The notes under the pieces were generated by a model. The model saw only the letters and a program-made list of their open reading frames with translations. It searched no databases and was not told the origin of the DNA. The position numbers and the translations under genes were made by a program. Positions 1-44,348 of a DNA stretch of 44,348 nucleotides are shown one piece after another (the stretch's first letter is position 1; every line of letters starts with the position of its first letter). The DNA is from a virus. Lineage: Duplodnaviria > Heunggongvirae > Uroviricota > Caudoviricetes. The DNA lies in the IMG/VR virus record IMGVR_UViG_2740892273_000003. One strand, 5' to 3'.

Positions 1-90
1 GAACAGGAGGGACAGCTGATAGAAACAGAAGCCACTGGAGCACCTCAAAAACACCATCATACACTAAATCAGTAAGTTGGCAGCATCACC
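1..90 (-). mobile_element. insA: IS1 terminal segment (terminal inverted repeat plus first ~12 codons of insA); element continues beyond the window start
   Basis: Reverse complement of 1-90 reads GGTGATGCTGCCAACTTACTGAT... followed by GTG GCT TCT GTT TCT ATC AGC TGT CCC TCC TGT TC (VASVSISCPSC), matching the IS1 end and InsA N-terminus from memory; similarity stops abruptly at 90/91. Confidence 0.75.
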
Positions 91-723
91 AGCCTTCTTG
101 AGGCTACCACCTGTTTTCAGGTGTCATTCAGACGTGATTTGCCCCAGATTGGGAAAGCACGCTTTTTTCTCAGCTATCGTCCTCTTATTTTGCCGTTACA
201 TTTCTTTTTGCATTCTAATGATTAATTTACAATAATAATATCGGTAATTATTGAGTAATAATAAATTAATTATTGCAAATGTAATTTAATTCCATCTTCG
301 CGTTATATTCCAATCTTTAATCTCCGCATGGAACAAGTTGCATGCGTGACTATATTAAGACGACTTATAACCACCAAAACATTTGCTTTGCAAGCAAAAA
401 CAGTGACCATTGACTCTAAGAAAATTCCGATCTATTGTTAGGGTCATCAAAGTTACTTAACAGTATTCCGAAATGAAAATACAAAGCAAGCTAATTGTCT
501 TATTAAACATTATTATTGCATTTATATTATTTGAGCTTTTAGCTCAAAAATTTGGTTTGAGTACATTATTTTAAAGCAAGATAAACAATATCGGGCACTC
601 TAGTTTTTATAATTAACAATTAAACGTCCATAAAATGTTATTTACTTTTCTTCGCTATTGTCATATCTTAATATAGTGGCTTACGCCACTCTACTTTCAT
701 CACATTTTGTACGTTTATGTACT

Positions 724-755
724 CGCCATGAAGCTCTTTCATGGCGATTTTTTAT
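724..755 (+). terminator. Intrinsic terminator on plus strand (CGCCATGAA-gctct-TTCATGGCG then T-run)
   Basis: 9-bp perfect stem, 5-nt loop, followed by ATTTTTTATT; points toward the tfa 3' end, implying a plus-strand transcription unit in the AT-rich 91-720 region. Confidence 0.5.
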
Positions 756-839
756 TCTTAATCCAAGAACATACTCCCTACCTATAGCAAAATCACTTTT
801 TTAACAAAAGAATAACGTATTTAGGTAATCATTACGAAT

Positions 840-1421
840 TTACCCTATAGGTGCTACTGGCCATTCAATATCCGGTGCAGTTGATGTATCAACACGGTTC
901 AGCAACACCCGATACTTTTTCCAAGCTTCCAGCAACAAGGTTTCTTTCTCCGTTGCGATCTCCAGATCCACAGCATCCTGAAGCGGCGCTATATGCTCAC
1001 TGGCTACCTGCATCAGGCTGTTTTTTGTTTCTTCCGCCTCCCGGATCCGGAACAGTTTTTCTGCTTCCGTATCCTTCACCCAGGCTGTGCCGTTCCACTT
1101 CTGAAACTCCCCTTCCGGCGACAACCAAGTAACATTTTCCGGTAACGGACCGAGTTCAGAAATAAATAACGCGTCGCCGGAAGCCACGTCATAAACCGTT
1201 TTACCCCGATGATCTTCAACGAGATGCCACGATGACTCATCACTGTTGAAAACAGCCACGAAACCAGCCGGAATATCTGGCGGTGCAATATCGGTACTGT
1301 TTGCAGGCAGACCTGTATGAGGCGGAATATATGCATCACCTTCACCAATAAATTCATTAGTTCCGGCCAGCAGGTTATAAATTTTTATGGTCCGTGCTTG
1401 TTCACTCATTCTGAATGCCAT
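840..1421 (-). CDS. tfa: Tail fiber assembly protein (lambda Tfa-like, 193 aa)
   Basis: ORF length and position immediately downstream of the side tail fiber gene; start overlaps stf stop. Confidence 0.8.
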
Positions 1422-4400
1422 TATGCGAGCCTCACAATATAGTTAAATGCGATGTTTTTGACGGTGTTTTCCGCGTTACCAGCAGCGTTAACGGTGATGG
1501 TGTGTCCATGTGAACCAATCGCAACAGAGTGCGTATGAGCACCAATACCGACAGTATGCGCGTGTGCACCCGCAGATGCTGCTGTGCCGGACAGTGAGTG
1601 TGTATGGTTTCCTTCTGAAGATGATTTACCTACCCATTGGGAGGTGCCACTGGTTAATGAGCCACTGATACCAACCTGATTAGTCCCGCTAACTTGAGTA
1701 CTCCCTGCCGGAAACATTCCAGTAGGTTGACTCCCGCTATTCGTTCTGGGCCCAGTCTGACTATGTTGGTGGGCCCCAGCTGAACTTGTAGAGCCGCTCA
1801 GACTGTGCGTATGCGCCCCGGTGTTATTCGTGGATTTAGTGCCGTAATCAAACGACGATGTGGTTTTCGTCCCCAAATCCGTACTGGATGCGCTGGCGCT
1901 GTGGGTGTGCGATTTAATGCCATCCTGTTCCTGAGACAATACGGCACGACCACTGGCGGGCTTGCCCTTAATCGTCCAGCCACGCATATCAGGGATCACG
2001 CCTGACGGATAAGCGGCTGCAAGTTTCGGGTAAGCAGATTTGTCAAAAGTCTGCCCCTGCATCAGGGCATAACCAGACGGAACGGTATCTGATGGCCACG
2101 GGATTGGTGCACCGACTGGATAAAACTCTGCAGGAGGATGAGCCGAGGTGTAAAGCTGCGCCCACGGCGACCAGTTTGCGTCGGTCGTATCCCGTCGTGA
2201 ACGAATAAATGCCGGAGCATGAGCACCGCTTGTACCACTCCAGCCGATGAGTAACTCACCTTCGCCAACGGCTGTCATCCCTTTCAGGTGAATGATATTT
2301 CCATACGCTGTTGGATATCCGTTGTTATACACCTCGTATAACTCAAGACCTGCTGCCCCCTGCGTATTGTCTGTCAGCGCGGCTACCCGACCTTTTGAAG
2401 CCAGATTAACTGATGATACTGCTGTTCCACCTGACGGTAGCGCCCCGATCTCTGATGCCGTTGGCTTATTTCTGGAGTTATAGTCCCTTCGCCAGCCAGG
2501 TGAATAATCTGTTCCGTGATTAATATAGGTAAACTGGGCGTTGGTTGTTCCGCCACCGCTGGATGTGGTCGGAGTGGTAATGCGGATCGTCATCGCTGAC
2601 TTTATCCCCATTACTTCAATGACAGCTCCGGCGAGATGAATATTACCGCAGCCAGTATCAGTAATGATTTTATTATTGCCATAAGACCAGGAACCCTTGC
2701 ACATCCAGTATGGATGGTTAAATGCTCCCTGAGAATCCAGCCACTCGATAAACTGTGCAGTCGTCCAGTTTCCTGTTGTTGTGCTTACTGACCCACCGAA
2801 GGCACGGCAGGCACCAATATTTTTCGTAAAGGTGTCTTTGCCAGGGATATCCGCACCGTTCTGATCTTTCTGCAGACGTTTCTCAGCATTGTCATTGGCT
2901 GCTTTTACTGCCTTTGGCGTTGCCGCCAGCGTTTCAGACGTGCTGTTGGTCGCGCTGCTTAGCTGGATTATCCCTTTCTGTGCTGTCGTTGCATCCTGTG
3001 CGGTGTATTTCCCGTTAGCCAGGTCATACGCGGCCTTAACGGCTTTTGGTGTTGCCGCCAGTGACTCGGAAGTGCTGTTAGTCGCACTACTGAGCTGTAC
3101 TATCCCCTTTTTCGTCGTGCTCGCATCCTCAAGCGCCACGGCGGATGCAATATCCTCTGCCCGTTTTGCCGCTGTCTCAGCGCGCGTTGCTGCAGATTCC
3201 GCCGTACTTTTGCTCTGAGCTGCTGCCGTCGCACTACCAGCAGCCTCTGTCGCCTTCGTGGATGCCGTCGTGGCGCTGCCCTTCGCTGCTGACGCCTGTC
3301 TGGTCGCCTCATCTTTTGAAGCAGACGCCGATGATGCCGATGACGCCGCCGAACTGGCGGACGATGCGGCAGCCGTTTTTGAGGATTCTGCACGGGTTTC
3401 CGACGCTTTCGCGTTCGTTTCGGATGTCTTCGCTGCGGAAGCTGACCTCGCTGCTGCCGTGGCCTGCTCAGTGGCTTCGCCAGCCTTCGTTGTGGCTGTT
3501 GAAGCGGATGATGCGGCGCTTTCTGCCGATTTTCCGGCGGCGGTGGCACTGGCTGAGGCCTGCCCGGCACTTGTTGACGCGGCGCTGGCAGACGACGCAG
3601 CCGCTGTTTTTGAGCCTGCCGCAGCTGAGGCACTCTGTCCCGCTGCCGTTTCAGAAGACCTGGCGTTCGTCTCGGACGTTTTGGCCGCCTTCGCAGAATT
3701 TGCAGCCGCCGTCGCCGAGGAAGCTGCGCTACTGGCGCTTGATGATGCGTTCGTTTCTGATGATTTTGCCGCCTCTTTTGAAGCCGACGCATCCCGGGCT
3801 GAGGTGGCAGCTTCTGACGCTTTCGTGGTCGCGGTGGATGCAGAAGTGGCTGCTGATTGTTGTGACGCTGCCGCATTCGTTTCTAACGTTTTCGCCGCAC
3901 CGGCACTGGTAGCCGCCGCGCTTTTTGAGGACTCTGCAGCGGCAGCACTTTTTGAGGCTTCAGTGGCCTTTGTTGATGCCGTTCCTGCGCTGGAAGACGC
4001 TGACTGAGCCGACGAAGCGGCCTGTCCGGCTGACGTGCTGGCTGCACGTGCTGAATCTGCAGCATCAGTCGCATGGGTTGCCGCCTCACGGGCTGATGTG
4101 CTGGCATCGCTGGCTGATTTCTTCGCGGCTGCCGTGTTCTGTGCCACCGCGGACGCGTTACGCGCCACCTCTTCCACCATCAGCTCAAAACGGCGCAGTG
4201 CCTCCGGACGGGCATCATCCTCCGTCATGGCACCGAGAAAATCATTCAGCGTACCGGGTCGGGAATCTTCATACACGGTGATGGTCCCGGCATGTGACGG
4301 CGGGAATCCTTCCACCAACAGAATAACGCTGTACTGACCGTACTCAACGTCCATGCTGTAACGCCCGGCTTCATCCGGATTTTCTGAGGCCAGCGTGTTC

Positions 4401-4510
4401 ACCACCACCGTGGTGCTGTTACGTTTTGCTTTCAGCTGGATTGTGCAGTTCTGTACCGGTTTTCCTGTGCCGTCTTTCAGTACACCTGAAATCTTTACTG
4501 CCATATTCAC
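1421..4510 (-). CDS. stf: Side tail fiber protein (1029 aa) with long Ala/Ser/Thr-rich low-complexity segment and C-terminal His-x-His repeats
   Basis: Duplicated KGI(V/I)[11 protein letters not shown](S/T)[11 protein letters not shown] fiber repeats; C-terminal GNHTHSLSG...AHAHT...AHTHS...GHTIT motif typical of phage tail fibers; sits between lom and tfa as in lambda. Confidence 0.8.
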
Positions 4511-4513
4511 CCC

Positions 4514-4542
4514 ACAAAAAAGCCCGCCTGAACCGGCGGGCT
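4514..4542 (-). terminator. Intrinsic terminator downstream of lom
   Basis: Minus strand reads AGCCCGCC-ggttca-GGCGGGCT followed by TTTTTTG. Confidence 0.5.
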
Positions 4543-4568
4543 GTCATAACACTGTGTTACCTGGCTAA

Positions 4569-5085
4569 TCAGAATTTATAACCGACACCCACGATGAAAC
4601 CGTCAGTGCGCCAGAGACGTGTTGCTGTGGCGACCGTCATCACTTCCGGTCAGCACATCGTGCGTTTTCCCCTTATTGTCAGTTACGCGGATATAATCCC
4701 CGGAAAAAGTCGACACACGGCTGTAAGCCACACCCGCCATCGCATACGCGCTGAACCATTCATTCACGCGCACAGACGGCCCCGCCATTACGCTGAACCA
4801 GCGGTTACGAACGGAATCTTCATGCCAGCGGGTATCGCTGTAACGGGTCAGCTGGCGATTCTTGTCTCCTGCATAGCTGAATGACGTCACCAGCCCCAGC
4901 GTATCCGTAAACTCATAACGGTATTTCACGTTAATCCCGTTCAGATCATCACTGCCGGGAACGTTGGTCCGGGCATGAAGATACCCCGCGCTCAGCGTGG
5001 ACTGATGTTCAGACGCCCATGCAGGCGCACCGGATACGGCCAGGCAAATGGCTGCGGACAAAATGGCTGCACAAACTTTACGCAT
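4569..5085 (-). pseudogene. lom: lom-like outer membrane protein gene, 3' region disrupted by a frameshifting deletion
   Basis: ORF 4603-5085 matches the lambda Lom N-terminal ~158 aa and stops after ...NTSLAH; the expected C-terminal strand DGFIVGVGYKF-stop is present in a different frame at ~4569-4604, so ~83 nt appear to be missing relative to lambda lom. Confidence 0.55.
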
Positions 5086-5108
5086 AATTACCTCTCGCTT
5101 TTCTGCAA

Positions 5109-5133
5109 TAAAAAAGGCGTCATTCCTGACGCC
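5109..5133 (-). terminator. Intrinsic terminator downstream of J
   Basis: Minus strand reads GGCGTCA-ggaa-TGACGCC followed by TTTTTTATT. Confidence 0.5.
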
Positions 5134-5155
5134 ATTTATTGGGGTTATAAATATT

Positions 5156-8100
5156 TCAACGAATACTGATGCCGGAAGCCGCTTTTTTGGTCACAATCAC
5201 CGTACAGTCGGTGATATTGCCTGCCCCCTGATTGCCTTTCTGGAAAATCTTAAACTCCAGAGTGACGCTACCACCACCACTAGGCATATCAATAACTGCA
5301 CTGTAACTACCGGGAATGGCACCTTTAGTTTCTCTGGATGCGATTAATACGCCGTTTTTGCGAACTTCAAAACCATAACCCGTGTATCGCGTGCCTCCTG
5401 GGTTATTTCCGCTCCCCGGATCGTCATACGCTATACCGTTAAAAATAATGGGCGGAATAATAATCTGGCGGTCAAAGTTATGATCATCGCTTATGGTGAC
5501 TGTAACCGTCCCGTTTGGTGTTTCCGTGTTACCCCACGTACCAGCCTGTTTCGGAAATGATTTGGATACAGCTTTAACGAAGTCACCTCTGACCTGAGTC
5601 GCCTCCAGCATGCCCTTAATCGTACAGTTTTCATTTACCGTGACATTGTTGAGCGTCCCGGCGTTCGCATTCACACTGCCACTGATATCCGCATTTTTAG
5701 CGGTCAGCTTTCCGTCCGGAGTCAGGGAAAATGCCGATGGATTTCCACCGCTGGTAATGGTGGGGGCCGTCAGGCGTTTCAGGAACACGTCGTTCATGAA
5801 TATCTGATCGCCCTGACCAACAAACATCGGTTTTGTGTTGCCATTCGCAGGATTAACCATCGCAATCCTGTCCGCCGCCAGCAGCACCTGACTCTGCATG
5901 CCGTCAGGGGTGTTCTCAATACCGGCACCAATACCCGCGATATAAAGGCGTCCGTCCTGCATCTGCTGCAGCTTCACAGCCCACATGCTGTTCAGGTTAT
6001 TATTTGTATCAACCTGAACCTTCTGTATCTGCTGAATTGCCGCACTCTGGTCTTCCAGTTTCTTATTGACGGTCTGCGTGATTTCATTGCTGACATCCGT
6101 AATGGACGTCCTGATTTCAGCCAGGTCAGGCGCAAGCTGACCGTTATCAATCTGCGTCCACAGCTCCTGAGCCAGATGGGTTTTCCCTATCTCGCCTTTG
6201 AAAAAATCCAGATAACCGGATGCATCATCACTCGGCTGACCAACAGCCTCCACGAATGCCGATTTGCCAACGGTGTTCACACTGCGGATATAAAAGTAAT
6301 AATCATGGCCCGGTTTGATATTGATACTGGCGGCTATCCAGTACAGCGCCGTGCCAAGATAGCGTGCTGTGGTTTCAACCTGCCTGATATCCGCAATCCG
6401 CTTTTCCGAGAACCAGAACTCAAACTGTACCGTCGGATCATAAACCGCAAGATGCGGCGTGGCGGTTATCTGAAAATAGCCCGGCGTCAGCTCAATCCGC
6501 GACAGCGCTGCCGGTGCGGCAATCCGGAACGATACCGACGCCGGATCGCCCTGCTGCCCCCACGCATTTACTGCCCGGACTGTCAGCCTGTAGTTCCCCA
6601 GCGCCAGTTGTGTGAAGCGGTAAGTGGTTTCCGTCGTCCGGGCCGTGCTGACCAGCCGCTCACTGCCGTCATCCGCTGTTACGGTCAGACGGAGCAGGAA
6701 GCTCACGCCCTTCACCACCTTCGGCGTGTCCCAGCGCGCCAGCACCTGATATTCCCCGCTGTCTGCGGTGACTTCGGCAGTCAGGTGCTGCACCGCTGGC
6801 GGCGTGACACCATTCACCGTGCCGCTCTGGTCGCCGTCAAAGTGCGCCCCGTTATCCACGATGGCTTCTTTTTCCGGCACATGCTGCACGGCGGTGATGG
6901 CATACGTGCCGTCGTCGTTCTCACGGATACTCACGCAGCGGAACAATCGCTGGTGCAGCGTCGGCAGCTTCAGCCCCCACACGCTGTATTCAGCAACACC
7001 GTCAGGAACACGGCTCACTTTTACCTTCACGCCGTCGGTGACGGACTGGACCTCCACGCTGACCGGATTCCCCTGCCCGTCAACCAGGCTTATCAGCGTG
7101 GTGCCGGAGGATGGCAGCGTGATTTCACGGTCGAGCGTCAGCGTCCGGGTCTGGCTGTTCACCGCCAGCACGCGCCCGCCGGTGCGGATACCGGCATAGT
7201 CATCATCGCAGATTTCAATGACATCGCCCGGTACATGACGAAGCCCTTCAGCACCCACGCTGAAATCCACGGTCTGCGTCTCCAGCAGTTCCGTTTTAAT
7301 CAGCCACAGCCCGGCGCGGTGTGCCTGCCCCCGGCTGGTACAGCCAAAGGCATCCATCTTCGTGACGTTACGACCGTAACGGACAATGGCCTGCGTATCC
7401 TCCACAAGCTCTGTCGCCGTCTCCCAGCCGTTATCCGGGTCAATCCAGTTCACCTCAACGGCATTATGGCGGTCTTTCAGGGCGCTGAAACTGTAGCGGA
7501 ACGGCGCGCCATCATCCGGCATCACCACATTACTGCGGTTATAGGCCCACACCTTATCCGACTGTCGGTCCTGCACGAACGTCAGCGTCTGCCCGTTCCA
7601 TACCGGCATACAGCGCATCGCCGAGCAGAAATCACTGAGCACATCCCACGCCTTGCGCTGTGTGGTCAGCCAGGCATTACAGGTGATGCGCGGCTCCGTG
7701 CTGCCAAAGCCGTCCGGCACCGACTGGTCACAGTACTGGCCGATGACATACAGCGCCCATTTATCCACATCTGCCGCACCAAGACGTTTCCCCATGCCAT
7801 AGCGCGGATGGGTCAGCATATCCCACAGACACCAGGCCATGTTGTTGCTGTATGCCGGTTTTAACGTTCCGTCCCAGATACCGCTGTATTGCCGCGTCTG
7901 CGGATTATAGTTCGACGGCACCTGCAGAATGCGCCCGCGAAGATGATAATTACGGCTCACCTGCTGGCTGCCGAACTGCTCCGAATCCACCTGTACGCCG
8001 ACCAGTGCCGTGTTCGGGTAGCACTGTTTCACATCGATGATTTCGGTGTATGACGACCAGAGCGTTTTGTTCTGCAGCTGGTCTGTGGTGCTGTCTGGCG

Positions 8101-8350
8101 TCATCCTGCGCATCCGGATATTAAACGGGCGCGGCGGCAGGTTATCCACCACCACCGAGGCCAGATACTGCGAGGTGGTTTTGCCCTTAATGGTGATGTC
8201 TTTTTCCGTCACCCAGCCACCGTTACGCTGTATCTGAACCAGCAGGCGAACTTCAGACGGATTCCTGTCTCCCTTTGAGGTGGTTTCCACCAGTGCCTGC
8301 ACACCGAAGGTAAAGCGCAGACGGTCAATGTTTGCCGACACTTTACCCAT
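5156..8350 (-). CDS. J: Tail tip / host specificity protein J (1064 aa; about 68 aa shorter than lambda J because of an N-terminal in-frame deletion)
   Basis: Near-identity to lambda J from [35 protein letters not shown] onward; begins MGKV then joins directly to SANIDRL; an in-frame TGA lies two codons upstream of the ATG. Confidence 0.85.
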
Positions 8351-8370
8351 TCCTCACGCTCCATAAACGA

Positions 8371-8390
8371 CAAAACCGCCCGCAGGCGGT
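8371..8390 (-). terminator. Weak hairpin in the I-J intergenic spacer
   Basis: ACCGCC-tgcg-GGCGGT followed by TTTTG on the minus strand. Confidence 0.3.
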
Positions 8391-8410
8391 TTCACATAAA
8401 ACATTTTGCA

Positions 8411-9082
8411 TCAGCGACCAATCACCACAACCTGACCACCGTCCCCTTCGTCTGCCGTGCTGATCTCCTGAGATACCACACGTGACCCCACGCGCATTTC
8501 ACCATACAGAACAGGCATAACATTGCCCTGGGCAACCATGTTATCCAGTGAGGAGAAATAGGTGTTCTGCTTACCGTTATCCGTTGTCTGTGTGCGGGGA
8601 GTTCTGGCTTTCGGTGCCAGCATCTGAGCCACACCGCCGAGCACCATACTGGCACCGAGAGAAAACAGAATGCCGGTCATACCACCGGCACCAATGGCAG
8701 CCCCCCATGCTGCAAGGGTGGCTCCGGCGGTAAAGAATGATCCGGCAATGGCGGCTGCTCCCAGGACAATCTGGAATACACCACCTGACTTGGCCCCGGC
8801 GACTCTGGGAACAATATGAATCACAGCGCCGTCAGGCAGAGCCTCATGTAACTGTGCCGTTAATCCGGACGTGCTAACATCCTGCCCGGCAATACGCACC
8901 TGATACCAGCCGTCGCTCAGCTTCTGACGAAACGCAGGGAGCTGTGTGGCCATCGCCCGGATGGCTTCGGCACCCGTTTTCACACGAAGGTCGATGCGGC
9001 GGCCAAATCGTTGCAAATCCCCGTAAAGGCAGATGCGTGCCATGCCCGGTGACGCCAGAGGGAGTGTGTGCGTCGCTGCCAT
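8411..9082 (-). CDS. I: Tail assembly protein I (223 aa)
   Basis: Length identical to lambda I; position between K and J; Gly/Ala-rich C-terminal region. Confidence 0.8.
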   Translation of the reverse strand: MAATHTLPLASPGMARICLYGDLQRFGRRIDLRVKTGAEAIRAMATQLPAFRQKLSDGWYQVRIAGQDVSTSGLTAQLHEALPDGAVIHIVPRVAGAKSGGVFQIVLGAAAIAGSFFTAGATLAAWGAAIGAGGMTGILFSLGASMVLGGVAQMLAPKARTPRTQTTDNGKQNTYFSSLDNMVAQGNVMPVLYGEMRVGSRVVSQEISTADEGDGGQVVVIGR

Positions 9083-9723
9083 TTGTCGGTATACCTCTCT
9101 CGTTTGCTCAGTTGTTCAGGAATATGGTGCAGCAGCTCGCCGTCACCACAGTAAATGGCGGCATGATTCGGCACCGATGAACCAAAACAGCACAGCAGCA
9201 CATCGCCCGGCTGCGCCGCTGACAACGGCACCTGATACAGCCCTGTGGCCTCCAGATTATCCAGATAGAGATTCTGACCGTGACGCCACCAGTCATCCTC
9301 ACGATGAAAATCCGGCATCTCAATCCCCGCCAGATGGTAAGCATCCCGGAACAGCGTGTAACAGTCCGTCACCCCGTGCTCAAAGCGCCGCCCGGTAAGA
9401 TGTGGCACACAGCGGAACTTGTGAATCGCCCCCCGGCAGACCAGCCACCACGGCAAATCACTCTGCACCTGCAGCCGCCGGTCGGCCTCACTCAGCCAGG
9501 GCAGACCACCGGGGTGGCTGTGGACCAGTGCCACAATCTCACCCTGCATCTCTGCCTGCAGCCAGTCTTCCGGCGACATACGGAAATACGCCTCCGGCTC
9601 ACCGGAGATATTCACGCAGGGGAAATATCTTTCCCCCTCCGGCGTTCTTACCACGAAGCCGCACGACTCCGCTGGAGCACATCGCCGGGCGTGCGCCAGA
9701 ATCGCTGATTCTGTCTCTGTCAT
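8980..9723 (-). CDS. K: Tail tip assembly protein K (MPN/JAB plus NlpC/P60-like regions)
   Basis: HSHPGG motif and Cys/His-containing C-terminal half; position between L and I; overlaps I start. Confidence 0.75.
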   Translation of the reverse strand: MTETESAILAHARRCAPAESCGFVVRTPEGERYFPCVNISGEPEAYFRMSPEDWLQAEMQGEIVALVHSHPGGLPWLSEADRRLQVQSDLPWWLVCRGAIHKFRCVPHLTGRRFEHGVTDCYTLFRDAYHLAGIEMPDFHREDDWWRHGQNLYLDNLEATGLYQVPLSAAQPGDVLLCCFGSSVPNHAAIYCGDGELLHHIPEQLSKRERYTDKWQRRTHSLWRHRAWHASAFTGICNDLAAASTFV

Positions 9724-9728
9724 GGGAT

Positions 9729-10427
9729 TTACTGCGAAAGTTTGTTAATGGAAAGGAAGCCGCCAAAGTTGCCGACGTTATTGCGAAACTTACAGCCACT
9801 CAGGCATTTGCTGCATTTATCCTTCGTGATGTCGGACGTTGGCTGGTCATATTCATCCGCGACCGCCGGACCGTGATAACCGCACTCATCGCCGCGATAG
9901 GTCCAGGTGCAGGTGTTGGCCAGCATGATACGTCCCGGAAAAACAGCGCCATCTGTTTCCGTCGGCGTGGACAGTACAAAAGAGGCACTCACCGCGCTCA
10001 GTTCGCTGCACTGCTCAATGCGCCAGCGGCTGATCACCTCCTGCTCCGGATCGGCGTCACTGTTTCCGTTGACGAAGTTCACCGCATCCAGAAAACGGGC
10101 GTAAACCTTACGCCGGACCACCGTTCCGCCGACCAGACTCTGTAGATCTTCCGCCATCCCGGTGACCATACCGTACAGGTTAGAAACCATCAGCGTGGGG
10201 CGCGTACTGGTGCCTTTGCCATTCAGTTCAAAACCACTCCCCTGAATGGGATACGGCTGATACTGTCGCCCCTGCCAGGTGACCGGCTCACCTTTTTCGT
10301 TCTGCTCATTACAGAAAAAATAACGTTCTCCACCGACCTCTGTCAGATCGATTTCCCAGAGCACCACGCTGGCCGACTGCTCCGCACGGGTGCATTCATT
10401 CAGTGTTTCCTGCCGGATATCCTGCAT
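9729..10427 (-). CDS. L: Tail tip protein L (232 aa)
   Basis: Length identical to lambda L; Cys-rich C-terminus; gene order M-L-K-I-J. Confidence 0.8.
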   Translation of the reverse strand: MQDIRQETLNECTRAEQSASVVLWEIDLTEVGGERYFFCNEQNEKGEPVTWQGRQYQPYPIQGSGFELNGKGTSTRPTLMVSNLYGMVTGMAEDLQSLVGGTVVRRKVYARFLDAVNFVNGNSDADPEQEVISRWRIEQCSELSAVSASFVLSTPTETDGAVFPGRIMLANTCTWTYRGDECGYHGPAVADEYDQPTSDITKDKCSKCLSGCKFRNNVGNFGGFLSINKLSQ

Positions 10428-10756
10428 CAGTTCACCACCTGTTCAAACTCTGCGCTGAACTCAACACGCAGCATACTGACCCGCGACGACCATTTTGCGC
10501 AGGTCACCTTTATCTGCCGCCACTCATAAGGCGGCGTCCACAGAAAGGCTTTCCAGCCCCCGTGCTCTTCCAGAAACGACTCCAGTACCATGGCCTCCTC
10601 ACGGGGGACAGAAAGCGTCACGCTGTACGTTTTCAGGTTGGCATTCAGCCCGGCAGGCGCTCGCTGGGAATAGCCATCACCAAAGCGCACCTTTCTTACA
10701 GAAGGGGCCGAAGCCACATCCATACCGGGTTTCACTTTCCAGCGGAAGGTTTTCAT
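10427..10756 (-). CDS. M: Tail tip protein M (109 aa)
   Basis: Length identical to lambda M; follows the tape measure gene. Confidence 0.8.
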   Translation of the reverse strand: MKTFRWKVKPGMDVASAPSVRKVRFGDGYSQRAPAGLNANLKTYSVTLSVPREEAMVLESFLEEHGGWKAFLWTPPYEWRQIKVTCAKWSSRVSMLRVEFSAEFEQVVN

Positions 10757-13314
10757 CGTCCACCTCCGGAGAACAGGCCACCATCACGCATCTGTGTCTG
10801 AATTTCATCACGGGCACCCTTGCGGGCCATGTCATACACGGCCTTCATCATCTGTGGACCTGGCAGACCATTCGTACCGTCGTTCTGAATCACCACGTGA
10901 TTGTTCTGATTAAAATTAATGCCTTCAGCCCGCCGCATCTGCGCCGGACTTCCGGCACCGCCCACATAACCACCTTCCGCATAGCCGCGCATCAGCCGGT
11001 AGAGATTCCCCACGCCAATCCGGCTGGTTGCCTCCTTCGTGAAGACAAATTCACCACGGTGAACAATCCCCGCTGGCTCATATTTGCCGCCGGTTCCCGT
11101 AAATCCCCCGGTTGCAAAATGGAATTTCACCGCAGCGGCCTGAATGGCTGTACCACCTGACGCGGATGCGCCGCCACCAACAGCCCCGCCAATGGCGCTG
11201 CCGATACTCCCGACAATCCCCACCATTGCCTGCTTAAGCAGAATTTCTGTCATCATGGACAGCACGGAGCGGGTGAAGCTGCGCCAGTTCTGTTCACTGC
11301 CGGTCAGCATCGCCGCCATATTCTGTGCAATACCATCAAAGGTCTGCGTGGCTGCACTTTTAACCTGTGACATACTGTCCGTGGCGCTCTCTTCCCACTC
11401 ACTCCAGCCGGACTTCAGGCCTGCCATCCAGCTCCCGCGAAGCTGGTCTTCAGCCGCCCAGGTCTTTTTCTGCTCTGACATGACGTTATTCAGCGCCAGA
11501 GGATTATCGCCATACTGTTCCTTCAGGCGCTGTTCCGTGGCTTCCCGCGCTGCCTGCCGGTCAGTCAGCCCCCGGTTTTTCGCATCAATGGCTGCCCGTT
11601 TTGCCCGTTGCTGCTGTGCGAATTTATCCGCCTGCTGCGCCAGCGCATTCAGGTGCTCCTGATACGTAACCTTGTCACCAAGTGCAGCCAGCTGGCGTTT
11701 GTACTCCAGCGTCTCGTCTTTATGCGCCAGCAGGGATTTCTCCTGTGCGGACAGCTGGCGACGTTGTGCCGCCTCCTCCAGTACCGCGAACTGACTTTCT
11801 GCCTTCCACAAATCCCGGCGCTGCTGGCTGATTTTCTCATTCGCTCCGGCATGCTTCTCCAGCGTCCGGAGTTCTGCCTGAAGCGTCAGCAGGGCCGCAT
11901 GAGCACTGTCTTCCTGACGATCGCCCGCATACACCTTCACGCCGGACTGTTTCGGCTTTTTCAGCGTCGCTTCATAATCCTTTTTCGCCGCCGCCATCAG
12001 CGTGTTGTAATCTGCCTGCAGGATTTTTCCGTCTTTCAGTGCCTTGTTCAGTTCTTCCTGACGGGCGGTATATTTCTCCAGCGGCGTCTGCAGCCGTTCG
12101 TAAGCCTTCTGCGCCTCTTCGGTATATTTCAGCCGTGACGCTTCGGTATCGCTCTGCTGCTGCGCATTTTTGTCCTGTTGACGCTGTTGATCTACCCTCT
12201 TTTGGGCTGCATCCCGCTCCAGGCGTTTTTTTTCACGATCATCCCAGTAACGCGCCCGTGCTTCATCGTTAACGAAATAATCATCCTTGCGCAGATTCCA
12301 GATGTCGTCTGCTTTCTTAAACGCAGCCTCTGCCTTAATCAGCATCTCCTGCGCGGTATCAGGACGACCAATATCCAGCACCGCATCCCACATGGATTTG
12401 AATGCACGTGCAGTCCTGTCTGCCCAGGTCTCCAGCGTGCCCATGTTCTCTTTCAGGCGGCGGGTCTGGTCATCAAACCCTTTCGTTGCGGCCTCGTTCG
12501 CCGCCTGCAATGCCCCGGCTTCATCGCCGGAACGCTGCAACTGAGCAACATACGCAATCTGCTCCGCCGTCACGTTATGGAACTGGCGTGCCATCGCCGT
12601 CAGCCCCGACGTCGGGTCTGTGGTCAGCTTCCCGAAGGCTTCAGCGACCTTGTCCACCTCCACGCCGGATGCATAGGAGAAACGCGCCACACTCTGGCTG
12701 ATGGACGCAATCTGAGCCTCACCGCTTACCCCCGCCTTAACCAGTGCGCTGAGTGACTCGCTGGTCTGGTTAAACGTCAGCCCTGCCGCCTGCCCGGCTC
12801 TGGACAGGACCAGCATACGATCTGCCGTCAGTCCCGCCTGATTACCGGAAAGGACCAGCGTTTTGTTGAAATCGGACAGGGTTGAGTTGCCCTGATACCA
12901 GGCATACGCCAGCGCACCGGTCGCCACCGCCAGCGAGGTGGCCCCCACCATCGGCAGGGTGATCGCGCCGGCAAGCCCCCTGAACATGGGGATCATCCCG
13001 CCGAAGGAGTCCTTAACCTGACCACCCTGTTGCAGCAGGATCAGCCAGGGATTCTGCCCCCCTGCAAGCTGCGTGGCCACGTCGGTGAACTGTGCAGGCA
13101 GCATACGCATGGCGGCTTTATACTGCCCGACGGAAATCCCCGCTTTCTGTGCAGCCAGCGCCTGTCGGCTCAGCGACTGTTCAACGACTGCCGCTGTTTT
13201 TTTCGCATCACTTTCCGTACCGGAAAAATGACGCCTGACTCTGGCCATCTGCTCGTCAAATCTGGCCGCATCCAGACTCAAATCAACGACCAGATCGCCT
13301 ACCGGTTCAGCCAT
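10753..13314 (-). CDS. H: Tail tape measure protein H (853 aa)
   Basis: Length identical to lambda H; coiled-coil rich middle; Gly-rich C-terminus; follows G/GT. Confidence 0.85.
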   Translation of the reverse strand: MAEPVGDLVVDLSLDAARFDEQMARVRRHFSGTESDAKKTAAVVEQSLSRQALAAQKAGISVGQYKAAMRMLPAQFTDVATQLAGGQNPWLILLQQGGQVKDSFGGMIPMFRGLAGAITLPMVGATSLAVATGALAYAWYQGNSTLSDFNKTLVLSGNQAGLTADRMLVLSRAGQAAGLTFNQTSESLSALVKAGVSGEAQIASISQSVARFSYASGVEVDKVAEAFGKLTTDPTSGLTAMARQFHNVTAEQIAYVAQLQRSGDEAGALQAANEAATKGFDDQTRRLKENMGTLETWADRTARAFKSMWDAVLDIGRPDTAQEMLIKAEAAFKKADDIWNLRKDDYFVNDEARARYWDDREKKRLERDAAQKRVDQQRQQDKNAQQQSDTEASRLKYTEEAQKAYERLQTPLEKYTARQEELNKALKDGKILQADYNTLMAAAKKDYEATLKKPKQSGVKVYAGDRQEDSAHAALLTLQAELRTLEKHAGANEKISQQRRDLWKAESQFAVLEEAAQRRQLSAQEKSLLAHKDETLEYKRQLAALGDKVTYQEHLNALAQQADKFAQQQRAKRAAIDAKNRGLTDRQAAREATEQRLKEQYGDNPLALNNVMSEQKKTWAAEDQLRGSWMAGLKSGWSEWEESATDSMSQVKSAATQTFDGIAQNMAAMLTGSEQNWRSFTRSVLSMMTEILLKQAMVGIVGSIGSAIGGAVGGGASASGGTAIQAAAVKFHFATGGFTGTGGKYEPAGIVHRGEFVFTKEATSRIGVGNLYRLMRGYAEGGYVGGAGSPAQMRRAEGINFNQNNHVVIQNDGTNGLPGPQMMKAVYDMARKGARDEIQTQMRDGGLFSGGGR

Positions 13315-28204: not shown

Positions 28205-28516
28205 ATGTTTAACGTGATAACCCACCCTGCAGCACTGGATGAACTGCTTGAACTACCAGATGATTTGCGAGGTCGCATGACCAGATTAATTGAGCGACTG
28301 GAGAAGGAAGGCAACAAACTGAAGATGCCCCATAGCCGTGTAATAGGTGGAGGGCTTTTTGAACTACGAGTAGGGGATAAAAACATCGCAAGAACGCTGT
28401 ACGCCTACGCGACTGGTAACGAAATTTATCTATTGCATGCATTTGTAAAAAAGACACAGAAAACACCGGTGAAGGCTATTGAAATCGCCAGAACTCGCCT
28501 GAAGGAGATGAACTGA
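28205..28516 (+). CDS. Type II toxin, RelE/HigB superfamily (N15 gp49-like, 103 aa)
   Basis: Small basic protein resembling gp49-like/HigB toxins; GGAGG RBS 7 nt upstream; encoded upstream of an HTH protein with ATGA start/stop overlap; opposite strand to flanking phage genes. Confidence 0.65.
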   Translation: MFNVITHPAALDELLELPDDLRGRMTRLIERLEKEGNKLKMPHSRVIGGGLFELRVGDKNIARTLYAYATGNEIYLLHAFVKKTQKTPVKAIEIARTRLKEMN

Positions 28517-28803
28517 TGAAAGCGAAAGGCATCCCGTTTAACGAAGTAAAAGAAAAACTTCTCAACACTCCAGAAGCCATCAAAGGATATGAAGAGGCCG
28601 ATAAAGAGCTGGAGATGGTCGAAATGTTATACGAAATGAGGGAAAGAGCAGGTTTAACGAAGTCAGCTCTGGCTGAACGAATGGGATTGCGCCCGTCAGC
28701 TATCAGCCGCCTGGAAAGCAATCCTTTAGGGGCAAGCATGAAAACTTTATCAAAATATGCCCAAGCATGCGGTGCAACGATTAATATTAATGCCGTCTAT
28801 TGA
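28516..28803 (+). CDS. HTH (XRE-family) antitoxin, HigA-like (95 aa)
   Basis: Helix-turn-helix segment LTKSALAERMGLRPSAISRLE; translationally coupled to the toxin gene. Confidence 0.65.
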   Translation: MKAKGIPFNEVKEKLLNTPEAIKGYEEADKELEMVEMLYEMRERAGLTKSALAERMGLRPSAISRLESNPLGASMKTLSKYAQACGATININAVY

Positions 28804-44198: not shown

Positions 44199-44289
44199 CT
44201 TTCCTCTCCTGATTATCCGCTCGGATTATCGTAACACAATTTGAGAATAAGATAACTAATAACGCGTTAACTTAGGCACAAACTAACAG

Positions 44290-44327
44290 AACACAATAAC
44301 GGATAATAAATAAAAACACAATATCGG
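44290..44327. repeat. Two direct copies of AACACAATA(A/T)CGG, 25 bp apart, ~90-130 bp upstream of telN
   Basis: Both copies contain a CACAAT core resembling the outer TelN-binding repeats of the N15 telomere-resolution site as recalled; the window ends 21 bp later. Confidence 0.35.
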
Positions 44328-44348
44328 AACGTTAAAATTTGTTCCTTG

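Follow-up and report, generated by a model that had tools for sequence, protein, structure and literature searches.

An IS1-bounded contig of an N15-type phage-plasmid with a tail-fibre end of probable chromosomal lambdoid prophage origin

The window, i.e. the whole stretch of 44,348 nucleotides analyzed here, is likely to be a contig of an N15-type phage-plasmid that was broken at an IS1 repeat and whose tail-fibre end was recombined from a chromosomal lambdoid prophage. The break at position 1 is repeat-induced, and an IS1 end at such a contig break is a known kind of occurrence. A single feature is mildly out of the ordinary: the tail-fibre end of a phage-plasmid appears to be of chromosomal-prophage origin and to be bounded by a pre-existing IS1. 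The main features are listed in Table 1.

Table 1. Features of the window, with the evidence for each
Feature	Position	Strand	Evidence
IS1A-type insertion sequence, left end (IRL side)	1..90	(-)	90/90 identity and InsA start
AT-rich non-coding spacer, chromosomal lambdoid-prophage type	91..839	.	97-98.5% identity to L001, L002, L015 and L036
Tail fibre assembly gene tfa, 193 aa	840-1421	(-)	Pfam Caudo_TAP, E 8e-44
Side tail fibre gene stf, 1029 aa	1421..4510	(-)	ORF list
lom, 3'-truncated, 160 aa (usually 199)	4603..5085	(-)	Comparison with relatives
Tail tip gene J with in-frame 303-bp deletion	5156..8350	(-)	Comparison with sibling contig L010
N15-type replication gene repA, 1331 aa	34761..38756	(+)	~98% identity to pG749_3 gene
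Protelomerase gene telN, 633 aa	42297..44198	(-)	Four TelK/ResT Pfam domains
telN upstream region towards the telL telomere	44199..44348	.	Mapping to pG749_3 palindrome

Results

The IS1 terminus and the contig break

The first 90 nucleotides of the window agree without a mismatch with positions 679-768 of a complete IS1 (768 bp) of E. coli MLI023K1 (L001, NZ_CP116913.1), which is annotated by PGAP as an IS1A-family transposase. An exact match of 90 bp to a known insertion sequence is far beyond chance. The terminal inverted repeat lies at about 68-90. The GTG start of insA is found at position 35, about 55 bp inside the left end and reading towards position 1, and translation of the minus strand from 35 to 1 gives the InsA N-terminus VASVSISCPSC. 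The IS1 match has a sharp limit at 90/91, and homology to the IS1-free sequences L002 and L015 begins exactly at 91. The earlier note had described an exact IS1 terminus with the InsA N-terminus and an edge at 90/91, about 0.75 kb downstream of tfa; both descriptions are confirmed, the distance being 749 bp. The element is cut 90 bp in by the contig edge. In L001 and L036, which have the same junction, the IS1 is complete and carries a transposase annotated as frameshifted.

Exact-protein look-up showed that the window is the entire WGS contig CWVW01000021.1 of draft assembly GCA_001261435.1. The exact Tfa protein is present on only 6 contigs, named from Shigella sonnei only, and the host is apparently S. 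sonnei. The genome of this species is rich in IS1, and short-read assemblies of Shigella and E. coli are commonly interrupted at IS1 copies. Five sibling draft assemblies, with an identical tfa and 99.4-99.9% identical DNA, have contigs that stop at the same IS1 end. The overlaps of these sibling contigs into the IS1 end are 90, 83, 81 or 48 bp, or the contig stops 4 bp short of the junction; varying overlaps into one repeat would be the expected output of de Bruijn assemblers at different k. A whole contig that breaks off in an IS1 end, together with five siblings that do so at varying depths, identifies the break as repeat-induced: the short-read assembler went no further, as the host has multiple copies of IS1. 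Among the possibilities left side by side by the earlier note (insertion, deletion or inversion endpoint, or repeat-induced break), the siblings thus favor the last one, and a simple insertion is made unlikely by a junction shared by 79 genomes (see below). According to a large survey, most N15-type phage-plasmids come from S. sonnei, and their genomes assemble poorly (bioRxiv 10.1101/2025.09.12.675607).

The N15-type backbone and the telL end

All four domains expected of a protelomerase (TelK_N, muzzle, catalytic and stirrup) were matched in TelN with Pfam E values of 1e-50 to 5e-25. The pG749_3 gene to which repA is ~98% identical is annotated 'plasmid replication protein, CyRepA1 family'; the Pfam matches of repA (Toprim, Herpes_ori_bp) are weak. 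An HTH/S24 repressor gene and Q adjoin repA and belong to a cB/cro/Q immunity region. The part of the window from 24 to 44 kb aligned to N15-type linear plasmids only, mostly at 97-100% (e.g. pG749_3, NZ_CP014491.1, and PhiR46_1, PV340565.1), and phage N15 itself shows ~76% DNA identity to this backbone, over N15 genes 33-40. The lambda-like head/tail cassette at 6-24 kb matches its counterpart in pG749_3 at 95-100% identity. The gene order is that of the linear-prophage permutation, with telN and the tail fibre genes at opposite ends: reading from telL at the right end, repA is followed by the lysis, head and tail genes and then by stf-tfa. On the strength of its TelK/TelN domains, the 97-100% identity over 24-44 kb and this gene order, the element appears to be an N15-type linear phage-plasmid in linear-prophage arrangement, and its earlier assignment to the N15 type is upheld. 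Two overlapping ORFs (103 and 95 aa) at 28205-28803 (+) occupy the position of the RelE/ParE toxin and HTH antitoxin genes of pG749_3. This pair is likely a plasmid addiction module.

The final 40 nt of the window correspond to positions 4888-4927 of the pG749_3 stretch L004, in which the palindrome axis lies at 4967/4968. The telL hairpin tip is predicted 41 nt past the window end and 191 nt from telN, compared with a distance of 192 nt in N15. The tel half-site of pG749_3 agrees with the telRL half of N15 in 25 of 28 positions. Many complete linear-plasmid records terminate at the equivalent of window position ~44348, and contigs with an identical TelN stop 178-254 bp upstream of telN, the corresponding value for the window being 150 bp. 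Because the linear-plasmid records, the identical-TelN contigs and the pG749_3 axis coincide there, the right contig end would be the telL end, just short of the hairpin tip. Both contig ends are then structurally explained, one by the IS1 repeat and the other by the telL hairpin.

The ORF list of the 44,348-nt window contains no sopA or sopB, and a motif search of the window found neither CCATTATACG nor CGTATAATGG, the core motifs of tel (tel core sequence: CCATTATACGC). The earlier remark that the window lacks sopAB and the tel site is therefore correct. Their expected place is another matter: they had been placed between the tail fibre genes and telN, and in the linear arrangement the sopBA-telR arm is located at the far end of the molecule, the other end being telL. 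We infer that their absence from the window is an assembly effect at the IS1 and hairpin ends, and not evidence of loss. None of the contigs carrying the exact TelN of the window has an IS1 end on the sopB side.

Several public records of N15-type plasmids were found to be irregular. The 62.6-kb record of pG749_3 (L003/L004) is a fold-back of a ~48.4-kb hairpin-ended molecule, with telN-telN and sopA-sopA mirrored. The complete S. sonnei N15-type plasmid NZ_CP061364.1 (L038) was considered as a possible carrier of IS1 at the tail-fibre end; the record simply stops inside stf, without sopAB. NZ_CP148393.1 was rejected as an N15-type comparator, as it is an integrase-bearing circular element. 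Some public 'complete circular' N15-type plasmid records are fold-back or truncated artefacts.

The tail-fibre end

Chromosomal prophages and the N15-type plasmid pE16EC0316-2 have an stf that is 95-98% identical to that of the window. In this plasmid, stf-tfa is shared with the window from position 858 onward only. The tail-fibre module differs between pG749_3 and pE16EC0316-2. In N15-type relatives this module is bounded distally by the tfa 3' segment, and pG749_3 has kept a 111-bp tfa relic beside sopB. N15-type phage-plasmids vary mainly in their tail genes, and their structural cassette is shared with lambdoid phages (bioRxiv 10.1101/2025.09.12.675607).

Two genes next to this module are damaged. 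About 84 bp are missing from lom near 4609-4614, so that the last beta-strands are lost; the same truncation is present in the sibling contig L010, and the NCBIfam matches of the product (OmpX/Ail-like) cover its N-terminal part only. In J, residues ~4-104 have been removed by a deletion at window 8339-8341, which joins MGK to VSANIDRL and has no flanking repeat. Full-length J, of 1165 aa, is present in L010, which is 99.8% identical to the window. Judging from J, the phage is probably tail-defective. Besides, an Rfam IS009 match was obtained at L015 6790-6900 on the minus strand, with 121.5 bits for a gathering score of 117. It overlaps the tfa 3' region (window ~880-990) and is cut by the edge of the searched stretch.

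The AT-rich spacer and its junction with IS1

The spacer between IS1 and tfa has a GC content of about 35% and is the tfa-proximal remnant of the intergenic region between tfa and an AraC-family gene. Window 91-857 is covered by no PLSDB plasmid and by none of the plasmids of complete E. coli genomes. Matches spanning window 91-3000 or 1-12000 are in chromosomes only, and N15-type plasmids align from 858 only. The exact IS1/flank junction (window 31-150) was found in 79 of 5,426 complete E. coli genomes; among the junction matches listed (30 records), all are chromosomes. The uninterrupted site (L015 5941-6060) is present in 831 of the 5,426 genomes, at 936 places, of which 0 are on plasmids. 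The view that the spacer and its IS1 junction represent N15 cargo has to be abandoned, as the block belongs to chromosomal lambdoid prophages and the empty site was never found on plasmid records.

In L001 and L036, which are prophages located at bio/ybhB, the complete IS1 lies 222 bp from the AraC-family gene. The IS1 of L001 replaces 550 bp of the L015-type empty site, upstream of this gene. No 8-9-bp target-site duplication is present at the IS1 of L001, the chromosomal copy sharing the junction, which lies between ...CAGCCAATAA and AGCCTTCTT.... Because 550 bp of the L015 site are replaced, this IS1 is explained by an insertion with an adjacent deletion and without target duplication. The lack of a duplication in L001 rules out a simple insertion and does not argue against the identity of the IS1. 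Since the junction is shared by 79 genomes, with the same far-side spacing in L001 and L036 and the 550-bp deletion in L001, the junction of the window appears to have been inherited from the chromosomal prophage lineage. It would predate the plasmid context and would not be a fresh insertion into the phage-plasmid.

Other IS1 copies and candidate features were met in this region. In L007 (NZ_OY754364.1, 5323-6090), a prophage at argW/intS, an IS1 is located in the same intergenic region with both junctions different; it replaces 904 bp, cutting the 5' end of the AraC-family gene. This suggests repeated IS1-mediated adjacent deletions in the region between tfa and the AraC-family gene. L008 was rejected as a further carrier of the junction, having ~900 bp of other sequence between IS1 and the homologous DNA. 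The AraC-family gene beyond IS1 could not be assigned to AppY, as it gave only sub-threshold YdeO/GadX-like matches, and it was kept as 'AraC-family, AppY-like by position'. For a tRNA-Ser-like fragment to the left of the junction in L002, the role of an att site was discarded: L015 has it too, elsewhere in the chromosome, which makes it prophage cargo. A fragment resembling the 3' end of a tRNA or tmRNA, L015 5832-5883, lies in the 550-bp stretch that L001 lost to IS1, and the window does not have it. ARAGORN made no tRNA call at the tRNA-like fragment, which may be a relic of an old att site. Within the spacer of the window, a 33-aa hydrophobic ORF, MKIQSKLIVLLNIIIAFILFELLAQKFGLSTLF, is present at 473-574 (+), with a weak match to the small stress-response membrane protein YncL (E 1e-5, below the cut-off). 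Terminator-like hairpins are found at 530-548 and 723-747 (+); downstream of the 33-aa ORF, such a hairpin precedes a T-run.

Mosaic structure

A sliding comparison divides the window into three zones. From 1 to ~6 kb it aligns to the chromosomal prophage type only, from ~6 to 24 kb to both types of element at 95-100%, and from ~24 to 44 kb to the N15 type only. Because normal N15-type plasmids have sopB 33 bp after tfa, the left ~6 kb would be chromosomal-prophage-type DNA joined to the N15 backbone. DNA of the chromosomal type passes tfa and continues up to IS1; therefore, the distal joint lies at or beyond IS1, and IS1 is probably this joint. At least 80% of window 12-26 kb is held by 2,906 complete genomes. 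This abundance of the structural cassette provides ample homology for exchange between prophages and plasmids. The co-occurrence of the rare tfa variant with the backbone was also considered, and the blocks concerned (274 for RepA, 2,943 for the methylase and 1,233 for a 176-aa protein) are too common to inform. The recombinant arrangement is in no complete plasmid of the collections, its support being one draft contig.

Discussion

The most likely history of the window would be a recombination between a phage-plasmid and a chromosomal lambdoid prophage. One crossover may have taken place inside the ~18 kb of structural genes, where identity is 95-100%. IS1 could have supplied the second joint, either by homologous exchange between two of its copies or by forming a cointegrate, with subsequent resolution at the homologous tail genes. 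The sopBA-telR arm (~2.7 kb) would then be located beyond IS1 on another contig, and the molecule would measure ~47.8 kb, which is within the capacity of a lambda-type head. That lambdoid elements exchange tail-fibre ends in mosaic fashion is well documented. Gene exchange between phage-plasmids and integrative phages has also been described (PMC10879196).

The contig could also be a chimera created during assembly, if a chromosomal lambdoid prophage and a normal N15-type plasmid had been threaded together through their near-identical structural genes. The clean split of the window into chromosome-only (1-6 kb), shared (6-24 kb) and plasmid-only (24-44 kb) zones is what such an artefact would produce. 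No plasmid of a complete genome carries the left block, and sibling contigs break variously in stf, lom and the tape-measure gene, suggesting that other lambdoid copies are present there. However, the shared regions in representative genomes are typically 95-99% identical and not the same, which would keep de Bruijn paths mostly separate; truly identical stretches would break a contig rather than fuse two, and the window is an unbroken 44-kb contig. The private in-frame deletion in J also implies reads spanning it, and swaps of the tail-fibre module do occur among N15-type plasmids, as seen from pG749_3 and pE16EC0316-2. We consider a chimera unlikely.

Quite unlikely, too, is that IS1 marks a true structural joint at which the phage-plasmid captured the cargo end of a prophage (possibly with the AraC/AppY-like regulator) or, alternatively, was fused to the chromosome or deprived of its sopAB-telR arm. 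If true, a linear replicon with hairpin ends would here have undergone natural IS-mediated exchange or cointegration with a chromosome. A real truncation mediated by IS1, with loss of sopAB and/or telR or fusion to the chromosome, would mean that the element is no longer a self-partitioning linear plasmid. The missing sopAB and telR would agree with this, as would the adjacent deletions made by IS1 in the same region of chromosomal copies (550 bp in L001 and 904 bp in L007), and the damaged J and lom could indicate that the phage is already decaying. The telL end, however, is apparently intact and at its usual position, implying an active linear replicon, which needs telR, and the repeat fully explains the contig break. 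Such a truncation is thus improbable.

A simple de novo insertion of IS1 into the phage-plasmid is very unlikely. On this reading the AT-rich block would belong to the plasmid's own cargo, the insertion would show a target duplication of 8-9 bp, and sopB would follow at once. IS1 does prefer AT-rich targets, the host is rich in IS1 and the second, different junction pair of L007 shows that the region is repeatedly hit or remodelled, but the nucleotide-identical junction in 79 complete genomes with the same far-side spacing in L001 and L036 points to shared descent, L001 has a 550-bp deletion and no duplication, and the AT-rich block is in none of the N15-type plasmids examined.

The window is of little importance on its own. 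If the recombinant is real, it would be a tidy case of IS-bounded chromosomal prophage DNA moved onto a linear phage-plasmid. The practical value lies elsewhere: an apparent lack of sopAB and tel in draft N15-type contigs is to be read as an effect of assembly.

Comparison with known systems

With IS1 (IS1A, 768 bp), the window is identical over the outermost 90 bp, which hold the inverted repeat and the start codon (GTG) of insA, and here too the element behaves as an assembly-breaking repeat. The difference is one of extent, as the window holds only 90 bp of the 768-bp element.

The chromosomal lambdoid prophages at bio/ybhB, with DLP12-style gene names (E. coli 2009C-3133, MLI023K1 and STEC316), are collinear with the window from 1 to ~25.9 kb at ~97%, and their IS1 junction is identical to that of the window. 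IS1 is followed in them by the AraC-family (YdeO/GadX/AppY-like) gene, by IS fragments and by ybhB. Where the window has the N15 backbone, after the terminase genes, they carry lysis, Q and replication genes of lambdoid type.

The window and the N15-type plasmids have in common TelN, repA, the cB/cro/Q immunity region, the lambda-like structural genes and a linear-prophage permutation ending at telL. They differ at the other end. In N15 itself the tail fibre gene is followed by gene 26 (UmuD-like), sopB, sopA and telRL, and then by telN. In the N15-type plasmids (L006, L016-L025 and L037), tfa is followed after 33 bp by sopB and sopA and, ~465-540 bp further, by telR. In the window, by contrast, tfa is followed by the 749-bp AT-rich spacer of chromosomal type and by IS1, with no sopAB or telR seen in its 44,348 nucleotides.
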